A stretch of DNA of 64,000 bases from Candidatus Woesearchaeota archaeon (GCA_964578345.1 CAZOCP010000001.1:2028-66027); one strand, 5' to 3'; numbered from the stretch's first letter, positions 14,040 through 52,932 are shown. Numbers and translations: made by a program. The notes: generated from the sequence alone by a model not told the origin.

Positions 14040-16193
14040 TTATATATTTCCAAGAGCAATTGCAGCCAAAACAGTTAGAGCAAGAATTGAAGCCAAAGCA
14101 GTTGCCGTATATAAAAGAACTCCGATCCTTAAGTTTTTACTCAATTCTGATTTTTCTTTTAATGGGTCTCTTCCCACATCAACAGTTACAAGAGCAGAAG
14201 TAAGAATAAAGATTATTTCAATTACATAAATTCCTATGCTAATTTGCATAAAATAGGGAGGAATCATCTTAGTAATATCAAATATCTGCACAATGTTCTC
14301 TATTGAACCAAGACTGCCTGCCGCTTGCTCAGAGCCTGCCGAAGCACTTATTGTTTGTATTTTATTTAGAATTAAAGTTATCATTGTTGATAAACCGACT
14401 ACTATTCCTGCTAGAAGGGGGGCAAGGAAAGTCATATTGGATTTCATATCTGAAATAACTTCTGCCAGTAGGTCTTTAAGGCGCTGGTTTATTTTTTGGA
14501 TGTTTTTTACATATTCTGAAATAGACATTAATGATCTGGCGGCGACTTGAAGGCCTTTTTTAACGGACTCTACCAAAATGCGCATTGATGTAGCAATTAA
14601 AGCTGAAGGGTAATATGTAATTGCTCCTCGTTTTTTGTCAAAAACTGCTGACTCTAGTGGCATTCCCATCTGTTGGATATTTTGGTTTACAATGGAAAAA
14701 AAGCTGTGAGTTATCTGGCTTTGAGTAGATTCTGCAACTTTTCCGAAAGCAATTTCCGCAGGAATTCCGTCGCCAAGCCTATTGCCAATATGAAAAAGAG
14801 AGTTGGTAAATTCCTCTTCTAGCTGTTTAGTCTGATTCCTGGCTTTAATTAATTCTGATGTTTTTTTTCTGTAGGCATAAAAGAAAAAAAGACCTATTGA
14901 AAACGGCACAAATAAGCTGAGAAGCGTGGATAGGGGGCCAAAGGGCCCGATTTTCTTTCCATCAATAACCTTGAACTCAAAAAGTTTTGTAGCTCTAAAT
15001 GCATCGTTTTCTATTCCTATTTCTTCAAAAGTATAATCACTTTTTATATGAAAATAAGAAGTTAAGGAGTCTATTTGAAATATGAAAGGAAGCAGGCCAA
15101 TTATCAGAAAGGGCAATGAAATGAGCGCCGCAGTAATCCATGGTTTTTTAGAAGTGAATTTTTTATATTCTGGATTTAACTCAAGAACCGAGCTTTCTCC
15201 ATATCCTCCTGGGCGTTTGAGAAGTATTTCTGAGGCAAGATAAAAGACGAATAGAGGGATTAAAAAATTAAATAAAATAAATATATGTTGCCATTGAATC
15301 ACTCCTTGTAGAAGAGTTGAAGCGAGAGGAATAAGTGCAAGTCCTAGAGTTGGAAGAATAATCCCCAACATGTAAATGTTTGTTAGAGGAGAGCGGATTT
15401 CTCTGCTATACTTAAGCATCTTTTCATATATCCCATCTAAAATTACCTGCAGGGATTTTTCTAATATCTGAACTCTGCGGTTTTCGGAAGGTTCGTAGAG
15501 AGAAGATTCTACTAAATGGAATGATTCTATAAATTCAGGAGCATAGTCTCTCCAACTTTCTAAGTATGAGTCTAAAGATTGTTTTATTGTAGGATATTTT
15601 CCTATTTCTACATCATAAAAAATCTTTTTGAAGTCTAAAGCTAGAGGGCCTTCTAAATGCTGAGATGCAAACTCAACGGCCCTTTCGAGATTTGAAGTAT
15701 GTTTCATATATACAACAATATATAGAATTGCAGGCACCATCTGTGACGATGCTTTCATCCTCCAAATATTTGCCAGTCTTTTCGGCATAGTATAAGTATA
15801 ATAGAATATGAACATGCTCGCCATCACTCCTAAAAACAAAAATAAAAGTTGAATAGAGCCGTTTATTAAATATATGGCAACGCCAATAGATACTGTTACA
15901 AAAAAAGCTATTAACATAGAAACAATTGATAATGTTAAAGCTTGGCTCGGCTCAACTTCTAGATGGGCAATTTTTAGAAACTTTTCTACTCTAACTCGGT
16001 CTTTTTCTGCCATCTTTATTTTTATTAGATTTCCCAAAGACTTAACCCATCTTTCATAACGGGAGATCTCAGGAAGCATATCTTTTTTGAACTGTACATA
16101 GTCTGGAGAATATCCGGCTTGTTTTCCTGAAGATTCTATTTGAGACTCTATTTTCTGCTTATACTTATCTAGTATATCGTCGACGCTTCCCAT
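14040..16193 (-). CDS. type IV pilus/archaellum-type polytopic platform protein (TadC/FlaJ/T2SS-F-like)
   Basis: 717 aa with two blocks of TM helices separated by soluble helical domains, as in FlaJ/TadC; transcribed divergently from the prepilin-like gene cluster. Confidence 0.5.
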   Translation of the reverse strand: MGSVDDILDKYKQKIESQIESSGKQAGYSPDYVQFKKDMLPEISRYERWVKSLGNLIKIKMAEKDRVRVEKFLKIAHLEVEPSQALTLSIVSMLIAFFVTVSIGVAIYLINGSIQLLFLFLGVMASMFIFYYTYTMPKRLANIWRMKASSQMVPAILYIVVYMKHTSNLERAVEFASQHLEGPLALDFKKIFYDVEIGKYPTIKQSLDSYLESWRDYAPEFIESFHLVESSLYEPSENRRVQILEKSLQVILDGIYEKMLKYSREIRSPLTNIYMLGIILPTLGLALIPLASTLLQGVIQWQHIFILFNFLIPLFVFYLASEILLKRPGGYGESSVLELNPEYKKFTSKKPWITAALISLPFLIIGLLPFIFQIDSLTSYFHIKSDYTFEEIGIENDAFRATKLFEFKVIDGKKIGPFGPLSTLLSLFVPFSIGLFFFYAYRKKTSELIKARNQTKQLEEEFTNSLFHIGNRLGDGIPAEIAFGKVAESTQSQITHSFFSIVNQNIQQMGMPLESAVFDKKRGAITYYPSALIATSMRILVESVKKGLQVAARSLMSISEYVKNIQKINQRLKDLLAEVISDMKSNMTFLAPLLAGIVVGLSTMITLILNKIQTISASAGSEQAAGSLGSIENIVQIFDITKMIPPYFMQISIGIYVIEIIFILTSALVTVDVGRDPLKEKSELSKNLRIGVLLYTATALASILALTVLAAIALGNI

Positions 16194-17950: not shown

Positions 17951-19087
17951 ATGAAAAAAGGGGAGCTTAGTTCGGCAGTGGTTATTCCTTTAATTTTAAT
18001 TATCGCTGCTTTTTTAATCATTCTTGCCTTTCTTGTCCGCAATCTTTATTTTAGTGAGCTAATAACTGATGAGACTTGTAAACTTTCAGTTATAACTAGA
18101 GCGACCGCACCTAAGAGTGTACAGCACACAGTTCCTTTAAAATGCCAGACAAAAAAAATCTGCTTGACTTCTGGAAAAGGAAAGTGTGAAGAAGCTTTTG
18201 CAGGAGAGAAAGCCCAATTTATAAAAATTCCTGATATCAGAAACCCAAAAAATGATAATCCTGAAAAAATAAGGGAAGCAGCTGTAATGATTGAAGAAGC
18301 AAGTGCGCAGGCAATGTATGACTGCTGGAACATAATGGGGCAGGGCAAAGTTGATTTATTCCATAATTTATATACAGTTTCAGGAGCCGCATCGGGGAAA
18401 GTCGCTTGCGTTATATGCTCCAGAGTTGCTATTGACAAAGGCGTCAATAAAAACGTTCTGGATAATATAGACATTAATGAATATATGAGAACGCATCAAG
18501 TTCCAGGAAGCAGTTTGACCTACTTACAAGCCTTTACTGATAAAAGTGTAAACTCTTATTCAAAGGTTGACAGTGGATTCACTTACGAAAAATACAATGA
18601 AGAAATTGACAAGATCCTCGGAGATGACAATAATGTTGAGTCTGAGACCGATAGGCTTTCTAAAGTGAAATTCGAGGAATGGTCTTCTTCATGTGAAGAA
18701 AAAATAGATGGCAAATGTGTGAATAGACAGATGGTGTTTGTGTTCAGCCAAATTAAGACAGAGAGTATAAAAGATTATCTATCAAGGGCATCAGAAGTAG
18801 GATTAACTCTTGGAGTAACTTCTTTTGTGACTCCTGTTGTTAGAAATATAGCCACAAAAATTATCTTTCACCCTACAGGCGCAGTTGTTTCTTTAGTAGC
18901 AGGAAGTGCTGCCGTAGGTTATGGAGTTTATAATGTGAGGCAGGGACAGCTTGCTGCAATCGGCCACTGTGGTCAGTTTACTTCTGGCGATAAAGATGCG
19001 CAATATGGGTGTTCGTTAGTGCAAGGTGTTAATTATAATATCAATGATATTGATGCGTTATGCCCGATTATTCAGGGAGGAAATTGA
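17951..19087 (+). CDS. prepilin-like protein (class III signal peptide), 378 aa
   Basis: N-terminus MKKGELSSAVVIPLILIIAAFLIILAFLV; large extracellular domain with several Cys. Confidence 0.55.
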   Translation: MKKGELSSAVVIPLILIIAAFLIILAFLVRNLYFSELITDETCKLSVITRATAPKSVQHTVPLKCQTKKICLTSGKGKCEEAFAGEKAQFIKIPDIRNPKNDNPEKIREAAVMIEEASAQAMYDCWNIMGQGKVDLFHNLYTVSGAASGKVACVICSRVAIDKGVNKNVLDNIDINEYMRTHQVPGSSLTYLQAFTDKSVNSYSKVDSGFTYEKYNEEIDKILGDDNNVESETDRLSKVKFEEWSSSCEEKIDGKCVNRQMVFVFSQIKTESIKDYLSRASEVGLTLGVTSFVTPVVRNIATKIIFHPTGAVVSLVAGSAAVGYGVYNVRQGQLAAIGHCGQFTSGDKDAQYGCSLVQGVNYNINDIDALCPIIQGGN

Positions 19088-19090
19088 ATT

Positions 19091-19690
19091 ATGAATCAGA
19101 AAGGCATTCTCGCTTCAAATACACTAGGGGTTATTATTGCAGTTATTGCTTTAGCATTACTGTCTGTTGGAGTATATGGGGCTGTGAAATCTTATATTTA
19201 TCAGGATAGAGAGAGCGCAAAAAATGTTTTGGACAGCGTCGAATCAAAGATTAATGCTCTAGATAATGTTGGAAAAACTTCTTTTCCTATTCACGGGCCA
19301 AAAGATTGGTATTTGACTGCCTGGGGGCTTGAAGAAAAAGAATCTAACAAACCTGAAAAATGCTATTTCAAAAGCTGCATCTGCATATGCAAGGCCTCTC
19401 TTAATATAGGAGATTCAAAGGATAAACTTATATCGCTCTGCCAATCTACAGGTATTTGCAGGTTCCCTGAATTTTCTAAAATTGAAGTCCGAGGGGTCAA
19501 TTTTGAGAAATATGCAAGAGCAGAGCAAGCAGGTTTGGGGGCGGGGGATATTTATAGCGGGACTCCCTCTGAGAAAGGAAAGGCAGAATATATTAAATTT
19601 AAAGGAACTCTTATTGAAGTACAAGTTGAAATGAAGGACAAAAAAACTTTAGTTATTAGTGATATTTCCTCTCTTGATGAGCAAAATTAA
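19091..19690 (+). CDS. prepilin-like protein (class III signal peptide)
   Basis: N-terminus MNQKGILASNTLGVIIAVIALALLSVGVYG. Confidence 0.55.
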   Translation: MNQKGILASNTLGVIIAVIALALLSVGVYGAVKSYIYQDRESAKNVLDSVESKINALDNVGKTSFPIHGPKDWYLTAWGLEEKESNKPEKCYFKSCICICKASLNIGDSKDKLISLCQSTGICRFPEFSKIEVRGVNFEKYARAEQAGLGAGDIYSGTPSEKGKAEYIKFKGTLIEVQVEMKDKKTLVISDISSLDEQN

Positions 19691-19691
19691 A

Positions 19692-32366: not shown

Positions 32367-35237
32367 TTAGAACAGACGATATTTGCCTGAATTTCTTATT
32401 ATATATCCTGTCATTCCTTTTGGTTCAATGTCAAGTATTACCATTCCCATATGCCCTCCGCCTCCACTATCAGCAGGCGCAGGTGCTGGCGCAGAGCTTG
32501 GAGCTGGAGCACTATAAGATGTGCTTGGAGCACTATATGTAGAAGTTGTAGAAGTGCTTCCTGTATGGTCTCCGCTTGAGTATGTAGAACTTCCAGAATA
32601 AGTTCCTGTTCCCGAGGTTGTTGTACTGCCTGAATATGGCGTACTATAACTCCCTGTAGTTCCACTGCTGTATGTTGATGTACCTGTACTGCTTGTATAA
32701 GAATCACCACTATAAGCTCCGGGGTTATATCCAGTTGAAGATGTGCTTCCAGAACTTGTTCCTCCTCCTTGATTTGTCCATGTACCATCTGAATTCTGTG
32801 CCCAGTTATTTCCATATGAATCTACAGCAGAGCCGCTGCTGTATGAAGAACTACCTGCTGAACTTCCTGAAGCAGAGGGAGGACTATAATATGCGGAGTA
32901 GTACCCTCCTGCATTATAATGTGTTGTTGAGTCTGTGCTGCTTGTTCCTGAGGTCTGGCCCGAGTATTGATTGTAAACTTCTCCTGTAGACGCATGCCAT
33001 GTACCATCTGTATTTCTTGTCCATTCTTTTCCAGAAGGATCACTGAGACCTGTGCTTGCTCCTTCTTTTGAATCATATATTTTTCCTGATGTATCTGTGT
33101 ACATACCTGATTTAGAATCATATGCATAATAACTAGAAGGAGGAGGAGTATATGCCTCGCCTGTTGACGATTTCCAGCTTCCAGTTGAACTGTCATATTC
33201 CCACTTTTCACCATGATCAGTTGTGTAGCTTTTTTCATTTTCATGACCTACTGGAGCGCCGGTTATTGCTGCGGGCTGGTAAGTTTGCCCATTAGAAGAA
33301 GTCCAAATGCTTTTTTCAGGATCGTATTCCCAATTTTCACCTCCGTATGAATAAGTATAAGCTTTTTCATTGCTATAATAATTTGTATATTGATTATGAG
33401 ATCCTGTTCCATCTGGAGGCACATACGCTTTTCCATCTGCCGCGATATAATGCTCAAATTCCGGATTGTATTCATATTTTACAGCTGTACCATCTTCTCG
33501 TTTGTATTCAAACCCTGTTGGTTTATGCTCAAACTGTCCCCCACCTACTACACTATAAGATCCTGGTTTGTATGAATATGCTTCTTTTGTACCATCTGGA
33601 TTTATAACTTCATAACCGGTGGCAAAGTATTTGTATTCATAAATACCTTCGGGCTTTCCATATTTATATTCATAAACTTCATCACCTCTTGCGAAAGTAT
33701 TTATTGGTTCATACTCTTCTGGATATTGCTGTTTATAGGTTTCTCCTGAAGGAGTTGTGTATTCATATTCTTTTTCGGAAAATTTATATTTATACCCGGA
33801 TGTTGGATCAACATATTCATGTCCTTTGACAAAACCTCCGCCTGGTTGGTATTTTTCAGAGTTATCATCACCAATCGGCGGCCAAACTGGCATTACATCA
33901 ATACCCTTATCTTCGAACTCTATAAAGCCAGGAGGAATATATTCTTCTCCATACGCTTTTCTAAATTCGTCAGCATATCTTTCTGACATAACTGATGCTA
34001 TTTCCTGCTCGGTTTTTCCTTCTGCACGGAATTTATCAAATAAATTATTATATTCTTCACCTAATTTTTGAGCAAGCTCCGAGACTCTTTTTGATTGTTC
34101 ATGTCTTTTCTCAATTAGTTCTGCTTTTTCAGGATATTTCTGCTTAAGTTCTTCTTTATATCTTTCAAGCTCTTCTAAATTAGAATTTTCCCCACCAATA
34201 TTTTTAGTTAGTTCTAATGGATCTAAGTCTGCTTTTTCTGCAAGTCTGGATTTTTCTTCTGCTGAGAGATCATCATATTTTTCAGCGTTTAGAGATATAT
34301 GCTCTGCTGCCGTAAACTGACCAAAAGCTTTTCCATAATCTCCATTTTCATAAGCGCTTTCACATATCTGAAGATGAAGTTTTGCATTTTCAAGCAGTAT
34401 TTCTTCAGTGTGCGTATCTTCTCCTGCTTTTTTAGCATCTACCAACTCAGTTTCCTGTTGAATAATCGCTGCTTTTAATACAGCTATTTCGGTTTCTGTT
34501 ATTTCTTGTTTATATTCATCTGTTATCCCGCTCTCATCTTCTTTTTCAACAACTGCGAGTTCTACTTCTATTTTAGGAACTCCGCTTGCTTCGGCTGTTG
34601 CCTCTATTGCTTCTTCTTTTCCATCAAGTATTTTTGCTTCAGCTTCTACAGTCTCTTCTCTTATTTCATTAATTAGACTGGCTGCGGTTTCTCTGTTTAT
34701 ATCACCAGTTTCAACTTTTTCTACAATAGAAGTTTGGAGTGCTTCGGCATACTTTCCGTTATCGATGATGCTTTTTTGAAGTTCGATTAGCCTGTGCAAA
34801 GGCGTGTCTTCTGATTGCTGGAATGTCGAGTATTCTATATGCGATTCATCAGCTGCTTGTTCTATATGCTGCTGTGTTTTTATAAGCAATTCCTGCGATT
34901 CATCAGCTGCTGATTGAGCGGCTTCGTAATCTCCTGCTTCAATCATTGCTTTCATTTCTGCCAGTCTCTCTGCGGTGTATTGTGCCTCAAGCTCTACCTT
35001 TGCTTCTGCACTTGTTACGAAATTAAGCCGCATATGTTCAAAGAATAATTCTACATTGTACATTGCGCTGTCAGGAGTTGTTCCGGGGTCCGGGAAAGTT
35101 ATTTCTCTGACTTGAGAGGAATCGTCCTCTGCTGCTAAAACATTGAAATTAAAGACACTAATTGACAACATTGATATTAGAAATAAAGATATTGTATTAT
35201 AAATTCGGCTACTTTTTCTTTTTTGGTAAGTGTACAT
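32367..35237 (-). CDS. large secreted cell-surface protein (signal peptide, acidic coiled-coil region, W-x-W-x-Y repeats, Ser/Thr/Tyr/Gly-rich tail)
   Basis: Signal peptide ISLFLISMLSISVFNFNVLA-AEDD. About 380 aa of E/K/A-rich helix. Four repeats of the type GEKWEYDSSTGSWKSSTGEAYTPP. The terminal roughly 250 aa are largely S/T/G/Y. The coding DNA is markedly more GC-rich than its surroundings. Confidence 0.6.
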   Translation of the reverse strand: MYTYQKRKSSRIYNTISLFLISMLSISVFNFNVLAAEDDSSQVREITFPDPGTTPDSAMYNVELFFEHMRLNFVTSAEAKVELEAQYTAERLAEMKAMIEAGDYEAAQSAADESQELLIKTQQHIEQAADESHIEYSTFQQSEDTPLHRLIELQKSIIDNGKYAEALQTSIVEKVETGDINRETAASLINEIREETVEAEAKILDGKEEAIEATAEASGVPKIEVELAVVEKEDESGITDEYKQEITETEIAVLKAAIIQQETELVDAKKAGEDTHTEEILLENAKLHLQICESAYENGDYGKAFGQFTAAEHISLNAEKYDDLSAEEKSRLAEKADLDPLELTKNIGGENSNLEELERYKEELKQKYPEKAELIEKRHEQSKRVSELAQKLGEEYNNLFDKFRAEGKTEQEIASVMSERYADEFRKAYGEEYIPPGFIEFEDKGIDVMPVWPPIGDDNSEKYQPGGGFVKGHEYVDPTSGYKYKFSEKEYEYTTPSGETYKQQYPEEYEPINTFARGDEVYEYKYGKPEGIYEYKYFATGYEVINPDGTKEAYSYKPGSYSVVGGGQFEHKPTGFEYKREDGTAVKYEYNPEFEHYIAADGKAYVPPDGTGSHNQYTNYYSNEKAYTYSYGGENWEYDPEKSIWTSSNGQTYQPAAITGAPVGHENEKSYTTDHGEKWEYDSSTGSWKSSTGEAYTPPPSSYYAYDSKSGMYTDTSGKIYDSKEGASTGLSDPSGKEWTRNTDGTWHASTGEVYNQYSGQTSGTSSTDSTTHYNAGGYYSAYYSPPSASGSSAGSSSYSSGSAVDSYGNNWAQNSDGTWTNQGGGTSSGSTSSTGYNPGAYSGDSYTSSTGTSTYSSGTTGSYSTPYSGSTTTSGTGTYSGSSTYSSGDHTGSTSTTSTYSAPSTSYSAPAPSSAPAPAPADSGGGGHMGMVILDIEPKGMTGYIIRNSGKYRLF

Positions 35238-35446: not shown

Positions 35447-35692
35447 TTATCTATTGTAAATATTTTTACGATGTCCAACTTTTAAAATAATAATTGTTTC
35501 TTTCTCGATAGAAAAAATAACCCTGTAATCTCCTACTCTCAATCTAAAATCATTACTTCCTTTCAATCTTTTTATATCTTTAGAAAAAGGATTTTCAGAT
35601 AATTCTTCAACTTTTTTAATAATCCTTTTTGTTATAGAACCTTCAAGTTTTTCTATATTTTGTAATGCGTGTTCTTTCCATTCTACGTACAT
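35447..35692 (-). CDS. relE: RelE/ParE-family type II toxin
   Basis: FRLRVGDYRVIFSIEKETIIILKVGHRKNIY matches the RelE/StbE core. Confidence 0.8.
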   Translation of the reverse strand: MYVEWKEHALQNIEKLEGSITKRIIKKVEELSENPFSKDIKRLKGSNDFRLRVGDYRVIFSIEKETIIILKVGHRKNIYNR

Positions 35693-35898
35693 TATAATCC
35701 CAATCTTTTTTTAACTTCGGCATGAGAAACGCTCTTACCTTTTCTAGCCTCTTCTATTTCTTTCTTTGTTTTTTCATTTAATTCTAAATCGTCTTCAATC
35801 ATTCTCTCAATTACTTCGTTATAGGTTTCTCTTTCCATCATTTTCATTCTATTTAAAACAACCTTTACATTATCTGATATTTGTATTGTTGTTGCCAT
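35692..35898 (-). CDS. cognate antitoxin (small DNA-binding, RelB/Phd-like)
   Basis: 68 aa, overlaps the toxin start (ATGA), charged helical C-terminus. Confidence 0.6.
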   Translation of the reverse strand: MATTIQISDNVKVVLNRMKMMERETYNEVIERMIEDDLELNEKTKKEIEEARKGKSVSHAEVKKRLGL

Positions 35899-36027: not shown

Positions 36028-36101
36028 TAGGCGGGCAGGGATTTGAACCCTGATCAGTTCCTCCGCAAGGAACTATTCTATCCTGGTTGAACTACTCGCC
36101 T
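36028..36101 (-). tRNA. tRNA-Arg (anticodon GCG)
   Basis: Hand-folded. Acceptor AGGCGAG/CCCGCCT (one A-C mismatch), D arm with GG, anticodon stem GTTCC/GGAAC with loop TTGCGGA, T arm CAGGG-TTCAAAT-CCCTG, discriminator A. Confidence 0.65.
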
Positions 36102-37197
36102 GTTGTAGTCTAGCAAGGTTTTTCGGATTATTTGAACTTATCTCTTTTAGCCATTTTTCTACCATTAATTTACCATTTAAGTCTATTTTCCATTTTCCAA
36201 CAGATGGGATAAAGCCCAATTTAATTAGCATTTCTTTAACTTCTCTTATCAAATGTTGAGATTTAATCGTGAAAGTTACTGTCGGATAATTTTTCTTCGA
36301 TTTTGAAAAACTTACACAACCATCCGTATCAAACAACCCCCTTATAAATCCTATATATGTCTTTTTATTTCTACTTTCAATTATCTTTTTAGGTACTTTT
36401 ATTCTTTCAATTTTATTTCCATAAGGTATATCCAAAACTTTATTCTTAAAGTCAAATAATGCTTGGGAGTAAATCTCAAAACCAACAACGCTTTCTAGTT
36501 CCATAAGCCTTAAGTCAATATTATATAAATCTTTATATAATGGAAATAAGAAATTTGTCATGTAGTCTTTTTCTTTTTTACTTATTTTAACTGAAAAGTA
36601 TTTTTTATTAAATGATAAACATCCATCTCCTAGATGGACCCCAATTTCTTCTGCTAGTTCAGGAGACATTTGCTTTGGAAACTTTAGGCCTTTTTGTTTA
36701 TCGCCTTTACTAAAGTTTATTTGATTTATGTTTAAAAGTATTTTTTTATTTATAAAATATTGACGATTTTCTATTTCTAATTTATTACTTCTGTCTTTTC
36801 TTTTTTTCATTTTAGTTTCGATTGCCTTTTTTATAAATTCCTTATTATATTTACCAATTAAATTTTTAACAGCTTTCTTACCTGCATTGCTTCTGATTTG
36901 ATGGAATCTTGGATCATGCCATAGATTTTTTAAATGGTTTATCTTCTTCTCAACACCCTGCTTTCCGCCTTTTATGCTCCCCCAATTGTCCGGTTTTTTA
37001 TCGTAGATTTCTGGATTTGTGAACTCTTTTGGAATTAAATTTTCTGGCATGTATAGCGATCCTAATCTATATTTTTGTAGGGTTTTTACAGGAATTCTCA
37101 CTTTGACAGATAAATCATTAAAATTATTAACTTTATATTTATCTTTTAAAAAATTGAAGAATTTTTCTCGTTCTTTTTTTGTTAGTAAGATTCTCAT
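36073..37197 (-). CDS. free-standing LAGLIDADG-family homing endonuclease-like protein
   Basis: Two LAGLIDADG-type motifs, VHLGDGCLSF and LFDTDGCVSF; the ORF 3' end runs 29 nt into the tRNA-Arg gene. Confidence 0.65.
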   Translation of the reverse strand: MRILLTKKEREKFFNFLKDKYKVNNFNDLSVKVRIPVKTLQKYRLGSLYMPENLIPKEFTNPEIYDKKPDNWGSIKGGKQGVEKKINHLKNLWHDPRFHQIRSNAGKKAVKNLIGKYNKEFIKKAIETKMKKRKDRSNKLEIENRQYFINKKILLNINQINFSKGDKQKGLKFPKQMSPELAEEIGVHLGDGCLSFNKKYFSVKISKKEKDYMTNFLFPLYKDLYNIDLRLMELESVVGFEIYSQALFDFKNKVLDIPYGNKIERIKVPKKIIESRNKKTYIGFIRGLFDTDGCVSFSKSKKNYPTVTFTIKSQHLIREVKEMLIKLGFIPSVGKWKIDLNGKLMVEKWLKEISSNNPKNLARLQQASSSTRIE

Positions 37198-45192: not shown

Positions 45193-48100
45193 TCAAAACC
45201 ATTTGCCAAGAACCTCCTGTCTCTCTTTCTCCCTTCCAAATATACTCTGAATATATTTTTGAGTCAGCTCAAGACTCTCAAGCAAGTACGGACTAACTTT
45301 ATATTTTTTAGCCAAGTCAAGAGCTGGAAGCAAATATTTTAAAATACTTCCTTCTGAAACAGTAAAAATAAGCTTTCCTCCGCATCTTGTACATTTCCCC
45401 GTTAAAGGGGGTCTTCTAAATTTTTCATTGCAACCAACACATCTAAAAACTTGCTGTGAAAATTTTCTAAGATTTCCTCGTATATCTCTAATAAAATGCC
45501 TTTCAATTATCAATCTCGAAACATCCCTTACATCTACTGCCCTCAACTTACCGCATAAGTTCATCATAGAATCAACTTTGTCCTGCATGGCGGGCAAAGT
45601 CTTGTAAACTGAACATAATGGCCCAGCATTAATATTTGAAGTATCATAAGAAAACCATAATTCTTCAAACTCTTTATTTGTTCCGAGTCTGCCTCTTACT
45701 TGCTCCATTTTAATTTCAAAAGGAGAAGAATGTCTTTCGGCAGCTTCATAAAGAGCCAAAGGAATTTTTTTTGAAACATCAACATCAAATATCATATCAT
45801 CAACCTCATTCGCTCGAATTCTCATATTTAAAACAAGTGGGGCGTCTTGAGTGCCTCCTCTATGCGAAGGCAAAAACTTGCGTGAAAAATTTAATAATAA
45901 ATCCATTAAAAGCATTACTGCTGCTTCATCTCCATCGCAATCTCTCCTCATTGCGGCATGAATATAAGGAGAAGCTAATAAAGCCTGTGTTTGTGAAAAC
46001 CCTATTAACCTGCCTGCTACCGCGGCAGAAGTATGTGGAGACATACAAGCAAACAAACAGCCTACCAAGTCTTCTCGTTTAGAAGCGTTAAAAAACCTAT
46101 TCAGATTATATAGTTTTTCTAACTCATCATCAATAAACCTGGCGACTGATAAAAAAACAGCGTCTGCTCTTTCATCTGGAGTAACAGGACAAGATGGTAA
46201 GATAATATCGTGAGGGTAAATCTCCAATATCTGATCGTCTCTCTCAAGCTCCTTTCCATAAATATCAGAAGTATAGCCCATGTTCTTCAGCTTTGAAATG
46301 CTCGTCCCAATCTCACAGGGTTTAAAATGAGTCAGGGGCATCTCAGTCATATCGTATCTGATTGTTCCATCTTTGTTTACATTAAGATTGTGTTTTGCTC
46401 TGAGTAACCCTTTAGATAAATGCTCGCAATTATGGTCTTTGTTGCTGGTTCCTCTAACTCCTTTAACAATAAAGCTTATTTCCTCTTCTCTAAGTCCAAT
46501 TTTCTTTCTAGCTGAAGTGTAGTATGAAAAGACATCAATGTGGTTATTGTGATATGATTTCGAAAATCCATGTTCTTTGCACGTTTCAAATGAAAAAGAA
46601 TCGCATGAAGAACAGTAGTATCTCAATATGCATTCTTGTCTGCACTTCTCGCAAAAAGGATAAACTGAATCAATTGAGCAGTTTCTGCAGAAATACAGGG
46701 GAAACTCTGCCTTAACTCCTCCTTCCTCTATAGCAGACAAAAGGCTTCTCATTCTTCCTCCTTCCTCTCCTACAGGAAAAAGAACATGCGGACTTCCTAC
46801 AAGCTTGCGCAATTTAGCTTTCTCTGGTCTGCCCATTCTCGCGCCTATAAATGTGCCTGATTTATCTTTTATTTTAACAGGACAAAGTTCATTAATAATA
46901 TCTAATACCGGCTTATTGGATATTCTAACAGAAATGGTATCTATGTTTTTTTCTAATAAAGAATAATCAAGAATACCTAAATTAAACAGTAGCGCTTTGG
47001 TATTTTTTTCAGAAAGAACAACATTCTCAATGCTCAGGCTATGCTCACACCCTATAATTTCAAGTGCCCTTTTTCCTTTAGAAAATCTCTCTTTATCTTG
47101 GCGCGTAAAGGGTAGCACAAGACTCTTTTCTCTAACTTCTCCATGTGCAATCCAGTCTAATAAAGCAAGAAAATCTTCATAAGAAATTTCCCTCCAATAG
47201 TAAATAAAAGAAGGGTGAAGAGGAACTTTATATTTTTCTGACATAATCAGAGCATCAGAAAAAACAGGAAACATTTCACTATTCCCTCCTGCAGCCATTA
47301 GCTCTTCCAGCCAATACTGCTCAATATAGCCTGCCTCCTCTAACGGATGATTCCTATTTAAAAAATCTCCATAAGGAACTAGCAAATCTCCCAAATAAAT
47401 AATCTCAATAATCTGTGGGTATATCTTCAAAGTCTCGTTATGGTCTTTAAGAATTCTAACGGCCCCGTCTAATAATTTAACTATCGGACCGTCTATGTTA
47501 TCACAGATTGCGATTGTACATCCTTTTGTAGGTTTCTCGATTTTCAACTGTGTCCCGACTGCAATAAACCCTTGGGTAACCGCCATTGTCGCAGGATGAA
47601 GCGCAAGAGTAGAGTATCCTGTATTTCGGCATCTGCCATACCTCAAACGAAAAGCTCCAGACCTAGAAGGGTGCGCAAAAACCGGCCTTCCGGCAACTAA
47701 ATCTTGAATGTATGTGGCTCCAGAACGCTGGCCTCCTGCCTCCCTCTCTTTAATTTTCTTTTGTAGTTTAACAAACTCTTCCAGCCAATCCCACCCGGAT
47801 AAATTAAATCCTTTTTGTTTTAATTTTATTATTCTCCCTAAAACCTTCGGCGCCTTCTGTGCAAGGCCTTCTCCAATAACTAAAGCAAATCCGCTCCTAA
47901 TAAAATTAGTCTCTATTCGCGGAAGATCTTTATAATTATAAACTTCTTTGTCCTCGCTAGGGTCTCCGGTTAATTGAACAGGCAAATTTTGCATAAGAAA
48001 CTCCAGTTCTTTTTCAGAAGGAAGATACTGTAAATTTGTAATGCGCTCGTGGTATTCATAGCACTCGTGAATTCCTCGTTTGATTTCGTCATCTGTGGGG

Positions 48101-48633
48101 TCGTAAAGAGCATATCCAAAAATTTCACGAAGGTAATCAATAATAACTAAAGAAAAAGCAGCCTCGGTCCCCCCTGCCGATCTAATTGGCCCCGAATAAT
48201 ATGGAGCAAAAAAATCTTCTCCTTTAGAAGTCTTCTTTAATTTAAGTTGTATAAATCCCTCAATAGGAGAAGAAACATACCCTAAAGTCAAATATCCTAT
48301 TGCAACTCTGATTCCCGCCTCAATTGCTTCTAAATGACTTTGGAATTTACAAAACTTTTCTTTTGCAATTTCCTCTGCAATCTTCAATGCAACAGCAGGG
48401 TCAAGAGAGCCGTATTGTTTCTCTAATTCAAAAATTCTTCGGATAATTCCTTGGTCAATAATCTGAGGGTATAAAACTGAAACTAATCCGACGACTCTTT
48501 CTGCCAAAGAATTAGCTAGGGGAACTTCAACATCGCTCACAGGGTCGTATCCCTTCTTTTTTGCCTCCTTTGCTATAGTATAACATATTTGAACATTGTC
48601 TTCAATAGAAGAAAAATGATGATTAATATGCAC
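45193..48633 (-). CDS. polC: DNA polymerase II (PolD) large catalytic subunit DP2
   Basis: 1146 aa; multiple Cys clusters (CRNCSIDSVYPFCEKC, CSSCDS) and the conserved DP2 length and organisation; no intein. Confidence 0.9.
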   Translation of the reverse strand: MHINHHFSSIEDNVQICYTIAKEAKKKGYDPVSDVEVPLANSLAERVVGLVSVLYPQIIDQGIIRRIFELEKQYGSLDPAVALKIAEEIAKEKFCKFQSHLEAIEAGIRVAIGYLTLGYVSSPIEGFIQLKLKKTSKGEDFFAPYYSGPIRSAGGTEAAFSLVIIDYLREIFGYALYDPTDDEIKRGIHECYEYHERITNLQYLPSEKELEFLMQNLPVQLTGDPSEDKEVYNYKDLPRIETNFIRSGFALVIGEGLAQKAPKVLGRIIKLKQKGFNLSGWDWLEEFVKLQKKIKEREAGGQRSGATYIQDLVAGRPVFAHPSRSGAFRLRYGRCRNTGYSTLALHPATMAVTQGFIAVGTQLKIEKPTKGCTIAICDNIDGPIVKLLDGAVRILKDHNETLKIYPQIIEIIYLGDLLVPYGDFLNRNHPLEEAGYIEQYWLEELMAAGGNSEMFPVFSDALIMSEKYKVPLHPSFIYYWREISYEDFLALLDWIAHGEVREKSLVLPFTRQDKERFSKGKRALEIIGCEHSLSIENVVLSEKNTKALLFNLGILDYSLLEKNIDTISVRISNKPVLDIINELCPVKIKDKSGTFIGARMGRPEKAKLRKLVGSPHVLFPVGEEGGRMRSLLSAIEEGGVKAEFPLYFCRNCSIDSVYPFCEKCRQECILRYYCSSCDSFSFETCKEHGFSKSYHNNHIDVFSYYTSARKKIGLREEEISFIVKGVRGTSNKDHNCEHLSKGLLRAKHNLNVNKDGTIRYDMTEMPLTHFKPCEIGTSISKLKNMGYTSDIYGKELERDDQILEIYPHDIILPSCPVTPDERADAVFLSVARFIDDELEKLYNLNRFFNASKREDLVGCLFACMSPHTSAAVAGRLIGFSQTQALLASPYIHAAMRRDCDGDEAAVMLLMDLLLNFSRKFLPSHRGGTQDAPLVLNMRIRANEVDDMIFDVDVSKKIPLALYEAAERHSSPFEIKMEQVRGRLGTNKEFEELWFSYDTSNINAGPLCSVYKTLPAMQDKVDSMMNLCGKLRAVDVRDVSRLIIERHFIRDIRGNLRKFSQQVFRCVGCNEKFRRPPLTGKCTRCGGKLIFTVSEGSILKYLLPALDLAKKYKVSPYLLESLELTQKYIQSIFGREKERQEVLGKWF

Positions 48634-50197
48634 GATTGATTTCCTCCTCTACGCCGAAATCATAAACTTTCAGTTCTCTTGTTTTTAGGTTTAACACTGG
48701 AACTTTTGCAGGTTCTGGAATATTTCCAACTTTCTCTTCAAATTCTGTCTGGGCCTGCCAACAGCTTCCAGTTATAATAAGAGTCCCGTTGTAATTCTCA
48801 ATATCTAGTCTATGCACTTCTCCTGTACATAAAACATCTGGAACTTCTTCTATAACCAATGGATCTTTTTCTGCATTTGGGATATAGATAACTGAAGAAT
48901 GTGTTGGTGCAAGGTGCCTTCTCTTTAACATATGTCTAACTGCTTTGGCGGGCGATCTGTGCGCTTTCATTTCCCTTAATTCAGGAATCTCATTAATAAA
49001 AGAATGTATGCTTGCTCCATGGTACATTAAAACTTTAAATTCTTTGTCCTGCTCATAGAGCTTCACAAGCGAGGGATTAGTCACAAGCACTAAATTTTCT
49101 ATTTCGTATAAAGGAGAGCCGTAATATCTATCGATTAATGGCTGTGGTTCGGCAACTCTTGTTGCGTCATGCTGCCCAGGACACATAAAAATAATTATGT
49201 TTTTAGGTATTCTTTTCATATAAGAAGCCAAAAGAGAATATTGCTCTTTCATGCTTTTCAAAGCTAAAACCTGCTCTTGCCCGGGAAAAATTCCAACTCC
49301 ATCGACATTGTCTCCGGAAAAAAACAAATATTTAATTTTCTTAGCTGATTCTTCATCACTGTTAATCCACTCTAAAAAACGTTCGAAGCTTTTGTATAAA
49401 TGTCTGTCGCTCCCACAATGAACGTCGGATAAAAAAGCAATTGATATGTCTTGCTCGAATTTTGATTTCTCAAGAAGAAAAGCATCTGGGAAATAAATAT
49501 CATGAATAAAAATAATATCTCGGTTTCCTGACGCTTTAACAGCAACTACATCATCTAGCTGCAGTTCTCGGGCTTTGTTAAAAACCTCTAGCCGCTCTAA
49601 TTTTACCAAGCCGCTGATTTTTCCTGTCAAATCTTCCAAAGAAATAATTAAGTTCTTATTTTTTGTCTGCCTCTTTTCATTTACGATTCCAATAATGCTT
49701 AATTGTTGCCTCTCACTAGAAATTTTATTTATTGAACACAGATTCGTCAAATCTTGCCTTTGCATTAAAATACGTTGTAGTTGTTGATAGCGCGAACGAA
49801 AGTGATTTATAAAGTCAGAAACCTCGATTTTCTTAGAGGGAAGCGTAGATGAATAAAATAGTCTATAAGAAGAAGTCTGGGGGTTTATATTTTCTATTCC
49901 CGCACTTGATAGATTTATTTTTTCTTTTCTAATTTCAAATTTAATTCCTAATTTAATAAAAACATTCTCTATAGATAATTTATCTTCGCCTGACAGTTGC
50001 CCTAAAATTTGCTGAACATATTCTATATTATTTGATAAAGTAGATTTGGTTATTAATTTCTGCCCGGAAAATCTAACAAGATTTTCCAAAAAAACTTGCG
50101 CAATTTTTTTATCTTGTATGCTCTCTAAAATATCAAAAATCTCTTTTTCTAATAATAGCCCGCTCTCCCGAATTGTGTTTAAAATATCAGAATTCAT
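48623..50197 (-). CDS. polB: DNA polymerase II (PolD) small subunit DP1 (calcineurin-like phosphoesterase/exonuclease)
   Basis: OB-fold region plus metallophosphoesterase motifs (FLSDVHCGSD, FFSGDNVDG, GQHD, GHxH). Confidence 0.9.
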   Translation of the reverse strand: MNSDILNTIRESGLLLEKEIFDILESIQDKKIAQVFLENLVRFSGQKLITKSTLSNNIEYVQQILGQLSGEDKLSIENVFIKLGIKFEIRKEKINLSSAGIENINPQTSSYRLFYSSTLPSKKIEVSDFINHFRSRYQQLQRILMQRQDLTNLCSINKISSERQQLSIIGIVNEKRQTKNKNLIISLEDLTGKISGLVKLERLEVFNKARELQLDDVVAVKASGNRDIIFIHDIYFPDAFLLEKSKFEQDISIAFLSDVHCGSDRHLYKSFERFLEWINSDEESAKKIKYLFFSGDNVDGVGIFPGQEQVLALKSMKEQYSLLASYMKRIPKNIIIFMCPGQHDATRVAEPQPLIDRYYGSPLYEIENLVLVTNPSLVKLYEQDKEFKVLMYHGASIHSFINEIPELREMKAHRSPAKAVRHMLKRRHLAPTHSSVIYIPNAEKDPLVIEEVPDVLCTGEVHRLDIENYNGTLIITGSCWQAQTEFEEKVGNIPEPAKVPVLNLKTRELKVYDFGVEEEINRAY

Positions 50198-51399
50198 TGG
50201 AATAAAGCACGATCTAAAATATCCCGCGCCTTTGGTTTAATGTTTTGGCCTAACATCAGTTTTATCTCGCGCATTCTCCCCCTACGTCCTTTGCTGATTA
50301 CTTGCGCAGTTATAATCCCAAGCATATCAAACTCCGCGAGAATATCTGAAATTCTTCTTTGTGTTAGTATTTCATTTTTCGTCTTCTCGCATAATAATTG
50401 ATAAGCACCATAAACTTCGCCTGTGTAAATGGGGCTAGACTTATTTGTATCGTCTAATTGCATAATTGCAGCCAAAACCAATTGAAATTGTCTTGGCTCG
50501 CTCTCGATAATATCAAGCATTTTGTCTTTCTCTATTTTCTGATTTGCAGAATCTATATGGGATAATGTAATAGACTTGCTCTCTTCTCTTTCTGCCAGCT
50601 CTCCCGCAACTCTCAGCAAATCAAGCGCTCTTCTGGCGTCCCCGTGTTCTCTAGCTGCATAAGCCGCGCATTTTGCTAGAACTCCTTCGCCTAATACCCC
50701 TTGTTTAAATGCGTGCTGCGCTCTCTCTCTCAAAATATCCTGTAATTGCAGTGCATTATAGGGCGAGAAAACCATCTCCTCCTCTCCTAAAGAGCTCTTA
50801 ACTCTAGGATCCAAATTATCCTTAAATGTTAGGCTGTTGCTTATCCCAATAATGCTGATCTGGGCGTGTCTCAGCTCTGAATTCAGTCTGGTCAAAGTAT
50901 AAATAAAACTATCAGAAATCTTTTTGACTGCTTGGTCTATTTCATCTAATACTATAATAATAATTTGTTTTTTATAATCTATTAATTCAATAAATCTTCG
51001 ATAAACTTCATCCGTAGGAAGTCCGGTTGCCGGGACTGTCCCCCCTAAAGTATTTATCAACTCTGCAAGAATCCTGTATTCTGTGTCTGCAATTTTTTTA
51101 AGTTTGCAGTTTATATAAACAAATTGCAGGTTCTCCTCTCCAAGTTCTTTTATTTTATCCATTAGCTTCAAACCAACGTGTTGGACGCATAGCGTCTTTC
51201 CGCTTCCTGTCTTGCCATAAACAAAAAGATTGCTGATTCTCTCTCCTCGCAGCGCGGGCGCCAATATGGAAGCCACCGAAGCAATTTGTTCGTCTCTGTG
51301 CGGAACAAAATCAGGCGTATAGTTCGATTGTAAACAGCTCTTATTTTTAAATAAACTCTGAGATACAAATGCATTAAAAATACCCTCAACTCTGTCCAT
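50194..51399 (-). CDS. cdc6: Orc1/Cdc6 replication initiator
   Basis: AAA+ Walker A VYGKTGSGKT, Walker B, sensor motifs and a C-terminal winged helix. Confidence 0.9.
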   Translation of the reverse strand: MDRVEGIFNAFVSQSLFKNKSCLQSNYTPDFVPHRDEQIASVASILAPALRGERISNLFVYGKTGSGKTLCVQHVGLKLMDKIKELGEENLQFVYINCKLKKIADTEYRILAELINTLGGTVPATGLPTDEVYRRFIELIDYKKQIIIIVLDEIDQAVKKISDSFIYTLTRLNSELRHAQISIIGISNSLTFKDNLDPRVKSSLGEEEMVFSPYNALQLQDILRERAQHAFKQGVLGEGVLAKCAAYAAREHGDARRALDLLRVAGELAEREESKSITLSHIDSANQKIEKDKMLDIIESEPRQFQLVLAAIMQLDDTNKSSPIYTGEVYGAYQLLCEKTKNEILTQRRISDILAEFDMLGIITAQVISKGRRGRMREIKLMLGQNIKPKARDILDRALFQ

Positions 51400-51439
51400 A
51401 TATCACCTCTAAATTCTAGATGTAATAAGAGATTATAAA

Positions 51440-52060
51440 CTTATAGGTATTATTTTTCATATTTCCTGTGGAAAAAAGAATTTAAAGAGAATAAACCCTC
51501 CTTGAAGAAAAAAACAAACAATATCTCACACCTTGCTTTCCTATGGAGAACATAAACAAATGAAACATTCCCAAATTAATAAATGATTTGTATATAACCA
51601 TAAATTTGTATATAACCATAAAATACAGTTTATATTAACTTTATACTAAATACAATTTATATTAACTTTATACTATATAATAATACTCTAGAGTATTATT
51701 AATTACCAATCAGAACATTATATATAACCATAAATACACTTTTTATTACATAGTCCTATTAATCCGAATATTATACATAACTATAAAAAATACTTTCTAA
51801 TATATTATATTTAATTATATACTATTATATAATATCTTTTTCTATATAGTATATTTAATTATATACTATTATAAAACATACTTTCCAATATAATACATTT
51901 ACTTATATACTATTACATAATATATTTTTCTATATATTATATTTATATATGGAAAAATTTAAAAAGGAAGAAAAAATCCACGAGGAACAAACTCACTATA
52001 TAAATCCCCTCCATGAGAAACAATAGGGTCTCCAGGAAACAACCTTAAACCAAGAAACAA
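51440..52060. promoter_or_regulatory. putative replication origin (oriC) with ORB-like dyads, AT-rich direct repeats and a palindrome
   Basis: ORB-like TTTCC-N3-GGAAAA (51462-51475), TTTCC-TAT-GGAGAA (51536-51550), TCCA-CGA-GGAAC (51976-51992), TCCATGAGAAAC (52006-52022), TCCAGGAAAC (52029-52044). Direct repeats TATATAACCATAAAT x3 and TTTATATTAACTTTATACT x2. A 22-nt perfect palindrome lies at 51679-51700; the element is adjacent to cdc6. Confidence 0.6.
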
Positions 52061-52204
52061 CTCCAACCCAAGAAACAACACCCCATATTTCATATTATCA
52101 CCAATCCACACAATCTCCCCACCCCCTTCCCACAACCTATTATCCCCTTTATCCAGTACAAAAAATAGAGAAAAGTTTATATATATCTCACAATTACAAA
52201 CCAC

Positions 52205-52465
52205 ATGCCATTGGACAAACGCCCACTTAAAGACATAATAGGAAAACTAGTAGTGACCAAAGAAGGAAGACGTCTCGGTATTGTGAAAGACATAACTTTC
52301 GAAACAAGAACAGGCGAACTCATACAAATAATTCTTAAAGACACTACCCCATATACCAAAAATCTCAATCTAGAAACATCCCCCCAAAAAGAAACACTTA
52401 TTCCATACAACACCATTATCGCAATAGGAGACTTTGTAGTTATTTCAGAAGAAGATTTAATATAG
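52205..52465 (+). CDS. PRC-barrel domain protein
   Basis: GKLVVTKEGRRLGIVKDITFETRTGELIQIIL...IGDFVVISEEDL pattern typical of the PRC barrel. Confidence 0.5.
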   Translation: MPLDKRPLKDIIGKLVVTKEGRRLGIVKDITFETRTGELIQIILKDTTPYTKNLNLETSPQKETLIPYNTIIAIGDFVVISEEDLI

Positions 52466-52497
52466 ACCACCAATTTTAAATATACAAAATCACAACA

Positions 52498-52932
52498 ATG
52501 ATCCAACTAGTCAGTTTTAATTTTTCCAAGATTTCGGCCGAAAGACACCTCAATTTCACTCTTCAAAACATAAACACAAATATAGAATTCATCTCAATAG
52601 ATAAAGACAAGCTAGATTTAATTAAAGACAACGAAATTTTAAATATAAAGTTTAAGTTAACCATCTCTTATACAAAAAAAGAAGATAAAAAAACAGAAGA
52701 GGAAAAACAAGGAGAAGTGTTTTTTGAAGGGAATCTCATAGTATCAACAGATAAAGAAGAAGCAAAAAACATTCTCAAACAATGGAAGAAAAAAGAGATA
52801 AACCCACAAATAAAACTTCCTCTTTTCAACACAATTCTAGAAAGATGCGCCGCCAAAGCTCTGAAATTAGAAGAAGAGGTCAACCTACCTTTCCACATTC
52901 CCATTCCAAAAATACAGCCCAAACAACAATAA
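52498..52932 (+). CDS. hypothetical protein
   Basis: 144-aa ORF, K/E-rich. Confidence 0.3.
   Translation: MIQLVSFNFSKISAERHLNFTLQNINTNIEFISIDKDKLDLIKDNEILNIKFKLTISYTKKEDKKTEEEKQGEVFFEGNLIVSTDKEEAKNILKQWKKKEINPQIKLPLFNTILERCAAKALKLEEEVNLPFHIPIPKIQPKQQ

Follow-up and report, generated by a model that had tools for sequence, protein, structure and literature searches.

The 64,000-nt stretch of Candidatus Woesearchaeota archaeon analysed here (GCA_964578345.1 CAZOCP010000001.1:2028-66027), which we call the window and to whose full length all coordinates refer, harbors on its minus strand a gene for a large exported protein of 956 amino acids (aa). The protein belongs to a small family of surface proteins whose taxonomically assignable members are all from DPANN archaea, and we regard it, with somewhat better than even confidence, as a C-terminally tethered, non-N-glycosylated surface binding protein. 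An earlier note on the DNA had proposed a secreted candidate S-layer protein or adhesin/glycoprotein stalk; export, a location at the cell surface and membership in an uncharacterised family are supported. The open reading frame (ORF) is real, as documented by about 80 homologues and a confident AlphaFold2 fold. The features of the gene and its product are as follows.

32367..35237 (-), whole coding region (956 aa), in which 32367-32369 is the stop codon
35268..35275 (-), TATA-like box TTTAAATA with the purine-rich AAAGGAAAGG just before it, as read from the sequence
35169..35237 (-), stretch concerned by the public gene call P0001 (database entry; 934 aa, same protein), which starts at Met23
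35133..35237 (-), Sec-type signal peptide, aa 1-35, composed of a basic n-region and the hydrophobic core ISLFLISMLSISVFNFNVL, with a putative cleavage site between VLA and AEDD
33948..35105 (-), acidic all-alpha domain, aa ~45-430, 17 helices at a predicted local distance difference test score (pLDDT) of ~95, isoelectric point (pI) 4.4
34833..35084 (-), match to Pfam DUF5667 (PF18915), aa 52-135, E 2.1e-10, 41.4 bits versus a cut-off of 27
33342..33842 (-), Tyr-rich beta-hairpin meander, aa 466-632, with invariant columns and strands at pLDDT ~95
33270..33353 (-), Trp repeat 1, aa 629-656, YSYGGENWEYDPEKSIWTSSNGQTYQPA, hidden Markov model (HMM) i-E 2.3e-12
33141..33224 (-), Trp repeat 2, aa 672-699, TTDHGEKWEYDSSTGSWKSSTGEAYTPP, HMM i-E 2.4e-14, aligned to a Kelch protein by hhalign
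32967..33041 (-), Trp repeat 3, aa 733-757, DPSGKEWTRNTDGTWHASTGEVYNQ, HMM i-E 1e-10
32742..32825 (-), Trp repeat 4, aa 805-832, VDSYGNNWAQNSDGTWTNQGGGTSSGST, HMM i-E 2.2e-6
32463..32927 (-), S/T/G/Y-rich spacer, aa 771-925, predicted to be disordered, without Lys or Arg, pI 4.05, ending in APAPSSAPAPAPA
32370..32462 (-), C-terminal module, aa 926-956, GGGGHM-GMVILD-IEPKGM-TGYII-RNSG-KYRLF-COOH, a family-conserved tag

The N-terminus exhibits a basic KRK..R region and a 19-aa hydrophobic core (mean Kyte-Doolittle hydropathy 1.96 in a 19-aa window), followed by the site between VLA and AEDD at which the signal peptide is probably cleaved. Equivalent N-termini are present in other members of the family, and the signal peptide noticed earlier is confirmed. 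About 12 relatives (P0008, P0009, P0011, P0016, P0021, P0026, P0047, P0050, P0058, P0062, P0069) carry the motif APSHP directly after the N-terminal hydrophobic segment (e.g. ..GIAPSHPDF), which may represent a conserved mature N-terminus or a processing site; the window protein is devoid of it.

The structure of the full-length protein was predicted with AlphaFold2 from a 65-sequence alignment, resulting in a mean pLDDT of 80 and a predicted template modelling score (pTM) of 0.77. The model comprises 17 helices between aa 45 and 440 and about 30 short strands arranged in hairpins between aa 465 and 770, both at pLDDT ~95, and a disordered end (aa 831-956, pLDDT ~30). It suggests a single defined body made up of the helical and the beta part. 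The high whole-chain pTM argues against a free coiled-coil stalk in the helical region. An acidic coiled-coil stalk of about 380 aa had been proposed in the earlier note, and its acidity (pI 4.4) and helical nature (aa ~45-430) hold true, but the coiled-coil stalk was rejected: each of the 17 helices has at most 37 residues, and the region contains DUF5667 and helical bundles modelled together with the beta domain. The disordered S/T-rich tail is the better stalk candidate.

The stretch from aa 41 to 470 is acidic and rich in Glu, Ala and Lys, and the conserved motifs of the all-alpha domain are LLENAKLxLQ..GDYGKAFGQFTAAEH, KYPEK and DEFRKAYGEEYIPPGF. Its DUF5667 segment scores above the curated gathering cut-off, represents the sole Pfam match of the window protein and spans less than 10 % of it. 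The same precomputed match is found in most relatives, and a full-text literature search for "DUF5667" retrieved no papers. Conservation within the family peaks in the subsequent beta-hairpin meander, where many Tyr, Gly and Pro residues are invariant, and the composition of aa 471-640 (Tyr 18 %, Glu 14 %, Gly 11 %) corresponds to the Tyr/Gly/Glu-rich region described earlier. Searches of NCBIfam and of PDB sequences and profiles with the window protein gave no match, and PDB fold searches revealed no global fold match for the model. No carbohydrate-binding or S-layer domain was detected in the Pfam, NCBIfam and PDB searches, and Ig-like folds were absent from the top matches of the fold searches.

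The extent of the family was determined by an exhaustive HMM scan with a profile of aa 341-771 against 1.84 billion cluster representatives. It returned 90 matches including about 80 clear relatives, which are proteins of 750-1500 aa with the core at the same relative position (aa ~320-780). A word-indexed search retrieved 12 relatives at 35-47 % identity, and very few were found in such searches with a trimmed core profile or the N-terminal helical region. All seven loci from species-representative genomes belong to metagenome-assembled genomes (MAGs) of DPANN archaea (Woesearchaeota, Nanoarchaeota, Aenigmatarchaeota, Nanobdellati). None of six cluster representatives that were looked up is named in any source. 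More distant relatives carry a C-terminal CARDB, named as a cell-adhesion-related domain.

The window protein lacks any N-glycosylation sequon (N-x(not P)-S/T), while ~6.3 would be expected from block shuffles. The depletion is a property of the family, because 65 full-length relatives together contain 13 sequons versus 373 expected (ratio 0.03). The observed/expected ratios of the control motifs are 0.95 for S/T-x-N, 0.89 for Q-x-S/T, 1.15 for D-x-S/T, 0.79 for N-x-A/G and 0.89 for the N-S/T dipeptide, and N-x-S/T has a ratio of 0.84 in 48 other ORFs of the window. These values indicate that N-glycosylation is selected against in the family, and the depletion provides strong indirect evidence that the surface protein is exported and encounters the oligosaccharyltransferase. 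The designation as a glycoprotein in the earlier note is therefore not supported in its usual archaeal N-linked sense. Among the papers listed by our literature search, none deals with sequon depletion in DPANN secreted proteins.

One area of the window (17951..22311 (+) and 26206..27066 (+)) contains six consecutive small ORFs of 164-378 aa and, near them, a gene for Peptidase_A24 (prepilin peptidase). With a basic N-terminus that leads into a hydrophobic segment, the six ORFs resemble type IV pilins (e.g. MNQKGILASNTLGVIIAVIAL). Also near is a 717-aa polytopic membrane ORF without Pfam match (14040..16193 (-)), and the whole may be an archaeal pilus locus. The polytopic ORF was considered as AglB and rejected, as an STT3/AglB match was missing. 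The six pilin-like ORFs together contain 1 sequon versus 7.6 expected (P 0.004), so that the avoidance may extend to other exported proteins of the organism.

The C-terminal part of the protein begins with low-complexity sequence, in which aa 781-925 consist of 32 % Ser, 17 % Thr, 15 % Gly and 10 % Tyr and an AP repeat is present at aa ~910-922. The short hydrophobic GMVILDI is located near the C-terminus, and the protein ends with GGGGHMGMVILDIEPKGMTGYIIRNSGKYRLF. All elements of the previously described tail were hence recovered, but its length was overestimated (pure low complexity extends over ~155-190 aa and not 250). The lack of a PGF-CTERM-like anchor, likewise stated before, was confirmed by the absence of a PGF motif and of an NCBIfam match and by a best C-terminal 19-aa hydropathy window of 0.67.

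The final module is conserved, since 49 family members among those with complete ends share a Gly/Ser/Asp-rich run, followed by G-x-V-I-x-[D/E] and an aromatic/basic tail. The proportion of Lys and Arg rises from 1.3 % in the 150 residues before the module to 14 % within it. Three forms of the tail are found at the same position. The first is ..(L)TG[KY][IV]I....KYRLF-COOH as in the window protein, or a shortened version such as GHVVFDTTKYRRF. The second comprises strongly amphipathic helices (NWLVRFFRRLFGG, WFKKIWNKLFRKE, LIKFFKRLFGRN) with hydrophobic moments of 0.7-0.9, and the third, present in P0041 only, is a full transmembrane helix followed by KRQMRRR. Two types of C-terminal peptides are exemplified by ..TGYIIRNSGKYRLF and ..NWLVRFFRRLFGG. 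The interchange of these forms at one position is the main argument for an attachment to the membrane or envelope by the C-terminal end. The module thus represents a putative attachment end, and the disordered S/T/G/Y stretch is likely its tether. Six relatives (P0007, P0042, P0051, P0061, P0067, P0073) have one Cys in the amphipathic helix and another at or next to the C-terminus (e.g. ..CKLFKMSSC, ..GCLFSRSC, ..FICWIKKLFGRNC), a pairing that hints at a disulphide loop or a lipid modification.

The Trp repeats harbor eight of the nine Trp residues of the protein. An HMM built from 170 repeat units of the family detects exactly four significant copies in the window protein (i-E 2e-14 to 2e-6), and the pattern G..W.{7,9}W matches at aa 633, 676, 736 and 809, whereas four matches occurred in none of 20,000 shuffles of the C-terminal half. 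The fourth copy is degenerate, lies within the low-complexity tail and reaches a pLDDT of 60-75. The offset between repeats 1 and 2 is 43 aa, which corresponds to a Kelch-like period. Four copies had also been counted in the earlier note, but their spacing is W-x7/8-W-x7-Y and neither W-x-W-x-Y nor W-x(6)-W-x(5)-Y, and repeats 1 and 2 had been swapped. The statement that the repeat family is uncharacterised stands with respect to Pfam, NCBIfam and PDB sequences or profiles, but it has to be qualified by a profile-level alignment with the Kelch-motif hairpin. A search for DNA-level tandem repetition revealed nothing meaningful, and the copies are therefore old.

In the mechanism that we propose, the gene would give rise to a Sec-exported acidic surface protein of ~101 kDa, whose signal peptide would be removed after export from the DPANN cell. 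About 720 residues would fold as a "head" composed of the all-alpha domain (DUF5667 and further helical bundles) and a ~300-aa Tyr/Trp-rich antiparallel beta-meander, the distal part of which would consist of 43-aa Kelch-blade-like units (YxYSxGG-ExWxYD-xxxxW-xSSxGExY). The ~155-aa disordered S/T/G/Y spacer, free of basic residues, would join this head to the ~30-aa aromatic/basic C-terminal module. The module would hold the protein at the cell membrane or envelope, with the tail serving as a stalk and the head directed outward. The aromatic-rich face of the beta-meander, the most conserved part, would probably bind a ligand on a partner cell or substrate, either a glycan or an envelope component, and the near-elimination of N-x-S/T would reflect an encounter with the oligosaccharyltransferase from which the protein has to emerge without N-glycans. 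The ORF, the family, the domain layout, the confident fold, the repeat statistics, the sequon depletion, the conserved C-terminus and the native codon composition were directly observed, and signal-peptide cleavage, C-terminal tethering, outward orientation and ligand binding are what we infer.

Several observations weigh against this interpretation. The tail of the window protein is of the short KYRLF type with a moderate hydrophobic moment of 0.47, and AlphaFold2 predicts only a 5-residue helix in it (aa 950-954) at pLDDT ~30, so that membrane binding has the least support in this member. The exposed aromatic platform is an assumption. A second ORF with the C-terminal tag was found neither in the window nor in 10 related loci, and a general sorting signal is therefore unproven. 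Finally, the gene neighborhood is not conserved between genomes: no operon partner is shared between the loci of the relatives and the window, and the relatives are mostly surrounded by housekeeping genes (exosome/enolase, thioredoxin/DsbD, RNA polymerase). The gene accordingly stands alone, and its context provides no functional clue.

With regard to how such DPANN archaea build their surface and attach to their hosts, the family represents a concrete conserved candidate from lineages that are known here only from MAGs. Its merits are a confident predicted fold without PDB match, a short C-terminal tag and a clean sequon signal (13 versus 373), and in its escape from sequons it runs counter to the descriptions of typical archaeal surface proteins. 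A more far-reaching proposal, which we consider doubtful, links two of these properties: the C-terminal element would be an undescribed archaeal anchoring or sorting signal without transmembrane helix, and sequon removal would mark a class of DPANN surface proteins whose function, e.g. binding or entry of the host envelope, requires an N-glycan-free state. If both were true, the cell-contact apparatus of uncultivated Woesearchaeota, Pacearchaeota and Aenigmatarchaeota would have one of its core components in this family.

Two other roles have to be weighed against the surface binding protein. We deem it unlikely that the protein is the main lattice-forming S-layer protein of these DPANN lineages, anchored by its Ser/Thr-rich stalk and C-terminal element as in haloarchaea. 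This scenario fits an acidic, exported protein of ~100 kDa, which is encoded once in the window and in most related loci (with extra short related ORFs beside it in L006 and L007), has its own TATA-like promoter as far as the sequence tells, and parallels haloarchaeal S-layer glycoproteins in the order of folded domains, S/T-rich linker and C-terminal attachment. Moreover, an S-layer protein has not been experimentally determined for any DPANN archaeon so far (10.1101/2023.10.27.564410). However, the family comprises only ~80 clusters at 50 % identity among the 1.84 billion representatives and thus looks patchy, and the alpha plus beta-meander architecture of the window protein, without sequons, differs from the Ig-like, sequon-rich candidates NEQ300, Micr_00292 and MJ1_0160. 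Lower still is our estimate for a released effector, i.e. a contact or attack factor whose aromatic/basic C-terminal peptide on a flexible tether would insert into the membrane of the host cell. The amphipathic Trp/Phe/Lys/Arg helices of the relatives (moment 0.7-0.9) could bind any membrane, and the signal peptide could instead stay as an N-terminal anchor. The transmembrane helix with basic stop-transfer tail of P0041 at the same position nevertheless points to anchoring in the membrane of the producer, beside which the C-terminus, last to leave the Sec channel, would emerge.

The fold and the origin of the gene allow for two further alternatives. The Trp/Tyr-rich region could be a true divergent Kelch beta-propeller, closed within a single chain or by oligomerization, that acts as a lectin or enzyme. 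Kelch-repeat proteins are indeed the only non-family matches of the family profile (E 1e-8 to 1e-3, several stretches over the Trp-repeat columns). The hhalign comparison with one of them (probability 95.7 %, E 9e-9, 109 columns) matches the ~43-50 aa period and pairs "YSYGGETWxYDPxxxxWtS" with Kelch "lGDtWvYDPvanaWtq", and the best PDB matches of Foldseek are beta-propellers (virginiamycin B lyase, E 3e-6; Cake9; SMP30). However, the similarity is concentrated in a single hairpin (GxxWxYDxxxxxW), for which convergence is conceivable, the Pfam Kelch models (Kelch_1-6 or related) do not match the window protein even at E <= 1, and superposition of the model on the propellers with Foldseek gave TM-scores of at most 0.18. 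The model does not form a closed propeller of at least four (usually 6-7) four-stranded blades. The homology of the Trp repeats to Kelch is possible but unproven, and we regard a genuine propeller as improbable. Given the missing Pfam match, the presence of only 3-4 units and a model that is not a propeller, we call them Kelch-like hairpin units. By far the least probable explanation is that the gene is a horizontally acquired GC-rich intruder or that antisense or alternative-frame ORFs represent the true genes, with the long ORF being spurious. A local GC (guanine plus cytosine) content of 0.41-0.46 in the 3' part, the adjoining ParE toxin-antitoxin pair, LAGLIDADG ORF and tRNA gene, and several overlapping ORFs of 60-140 aa in other frames would be compatible with it. 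A GC content far above that of the remaining window had been ascribed to the coding DNA, but its GC of 0.390 exceeds the 0.344 +/- 0.028 of the 48 other ORFs (>=150 aa) by a z of only 1.6 and is equalled or surpassed by three other window genes. Furthermore, GC at third codon positions is 0.229 and below the window mean of 0.276. The only outlier is GC at second codon positions (z 3.0; 0.81 in the Ser/Thr/Gly tail), because codons for Ser, Thr, Gly and Ala have G or C at this position. The local rise is an effect of amino-acid composition and therefore no evidence of a foreign origin, and the horizontal acquisition raised in the earlier note finds no support in the native third positions. A spurious ORF is at odds with an identity of 25-49 % maintained across 64 aligned relatives, with the pLDDT of ~95 and with the differing housekeeping contexts, and both scenarios are effectively excluded. 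A viral origin was also rejected, since a search of the viral contigs in IMG/VR gave no relatives.

The window is an archaeal chromosome segment with ~34 % GC that encodes RadA, PolD DP1/DP2, Cdc6/Orc1 and the Lhr helicase. The TATA-like box TTTAAATA, the candidate promoter of the surface-protein gene, is located ~35 nt upstream of the ATG at 35237, thereby implying a very short leader. Its position favors the long start M1 (956 aa) over Met23, the start of P0001, which cuts off the basic n-region of the signal peptide. The gene is adjoined by a ParE toxin-antitoxin pair, a LAGLIDADG ORF and a tRNA gene, with RadA and YdjM also near in the window. Directly upstream (35447..35898 (-)), a ParE-family toxin (81 aa) has a 1-base overlap with a putative antitoxin (68 aa, DUF7557/VapB-like). 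The free-standing LAGLIDADG-domain ORF of 374 aa (36028..37197 (-)) overlaps with its 3' end the 5' part of tRNA-Arg(GCG) at 36028..36101. The genes for PolD DP2, DP1 and Cdc6/Orc1 are arranged in a row on the minus strand (45193..52932), followed by an AT-rich, mostly ORF-free stretch (GC 0.279 at 51001-52000) that may represent a replication origin region.

Two further observations concern the loci of the relatives. In three loci of distant relatives only (L002:10895-13312, L003:11591-13759, L005:11408-13819), a conserved gene for a Cys-rich protein (720-805 aa, repeated CYHG...C.HG.GHG motifs) comes after the family gene in the same orientation. This protein is without Pfam match, and the window encodes no homologue of it. 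In two "Nanobdellati" MAGs (L006:6494-12598, L007:6463-14122), the family gene has small ORFs of ~150 aa on its flanks, which BLASTP groups together with it. The family member of L006 (1529 aa) ends in a CARDB domain, one of three scanned small flanking ORFs matches CARDB (L007:12720-13163), and the family gene of L007 is split into ORFs of 670 and 739 aa.

A comparison with known systems shows where the window protein fits and where it departs. DUF5667 proteins share its N-terminal helical segment, a domain without known function, while no Pfam or NCBIfam model covers the Tyr-rich beta-meander, the Trp repeats, the tail or the C-terminal module. The ..GG-x-x-W-x-Y-D-x-x-x-x-x-W.. unit of the window protein and its ~43-aa period align with a Kelch blade segment, but the protein possesses only 3-4 units, and its loop from GG to W comprises 2 residues instead of roughly 6-10. 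Beta-meander proteins such as engineered OspA, the CPAP G-box/TCP10 and the YD shells of Rhs/teneurin exhibit local 3Di similarity in Foldseek (E ~1e-3) and a similar Y/E/K/T/G composition. Their TM-scores are nevertheless 0.09-0.20 and, for the Rhs/teneurin matches, 0.04-0.10, and the RHS_repeat/YD Pfam models do not match the window protein.

The C-terminus of MinD, ...GFLKRLFGG, is an amphipathic membrane-targeting helix of a cytoplasmic protein that binds the inner leaflet. Several relatives have nearly identical ends with a high hydrophobic moment (FFRRLFGG in P0070, FFKRLFGRN in P0055, LFKRLFGLG in P0016), although this likeness is a string similarity, for which the comparison of hydrophobic moments is uninformative (0.27 for the chosen MinD segment). 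In contrast to the cytoplasmic MinD-type proteins at the inner leaflet, the window protein is exported, and it ends with ..KYRLF at a moment of 0.47.

Haloarchaeal S-layer glycoproteins comprise a signal peptide, folded domains, an O-glycosylated Thr-rich stalk and a PGF-CTERM anchor, and they have many sequons. By analogy, the Sec signal, the large acidic body and the Ser/Thr-rich spacer before a short conserved C-terminal element would correspond to this layout. The folds are unrelated, however, and the window protein lacks the PGF motif of the PGF-CTERM/archaeosortase system, a C-terminal transmembrane helix and the multiple sequons.

Among DPANN archaea, NEQ300, Micr_00292 and MJ1_0160 have been proposed as S-layer proteins, with multi-Ig-like folds and many N-glycosylation sites, of which 15 are predicted in MJ1_0160 and 13-17 in related S-layer-domain proteins (10.1101/2023.10.27.564410). 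Like the window protein, they are large exported DPANN proteins without homology to classical S-layer proteins (10.1101/2023.10.27.564410). Judged by their published description, they are set apart by their multiple Ig-like folds and sites, since the model of the window protein exhibits 17 helices followed by short-hairpin meanders, and its sequence no sequon. The general kind, an archaeal exported surface protein with Ser/Thr-rich stalk and C-terminal attachment element, is known, and the catalogued part of the family is limited to the DUF5667 segment. New in this family are its variations on that kind, namely the fold of the beta-meander, the C-terminal module and the purge of sequons.

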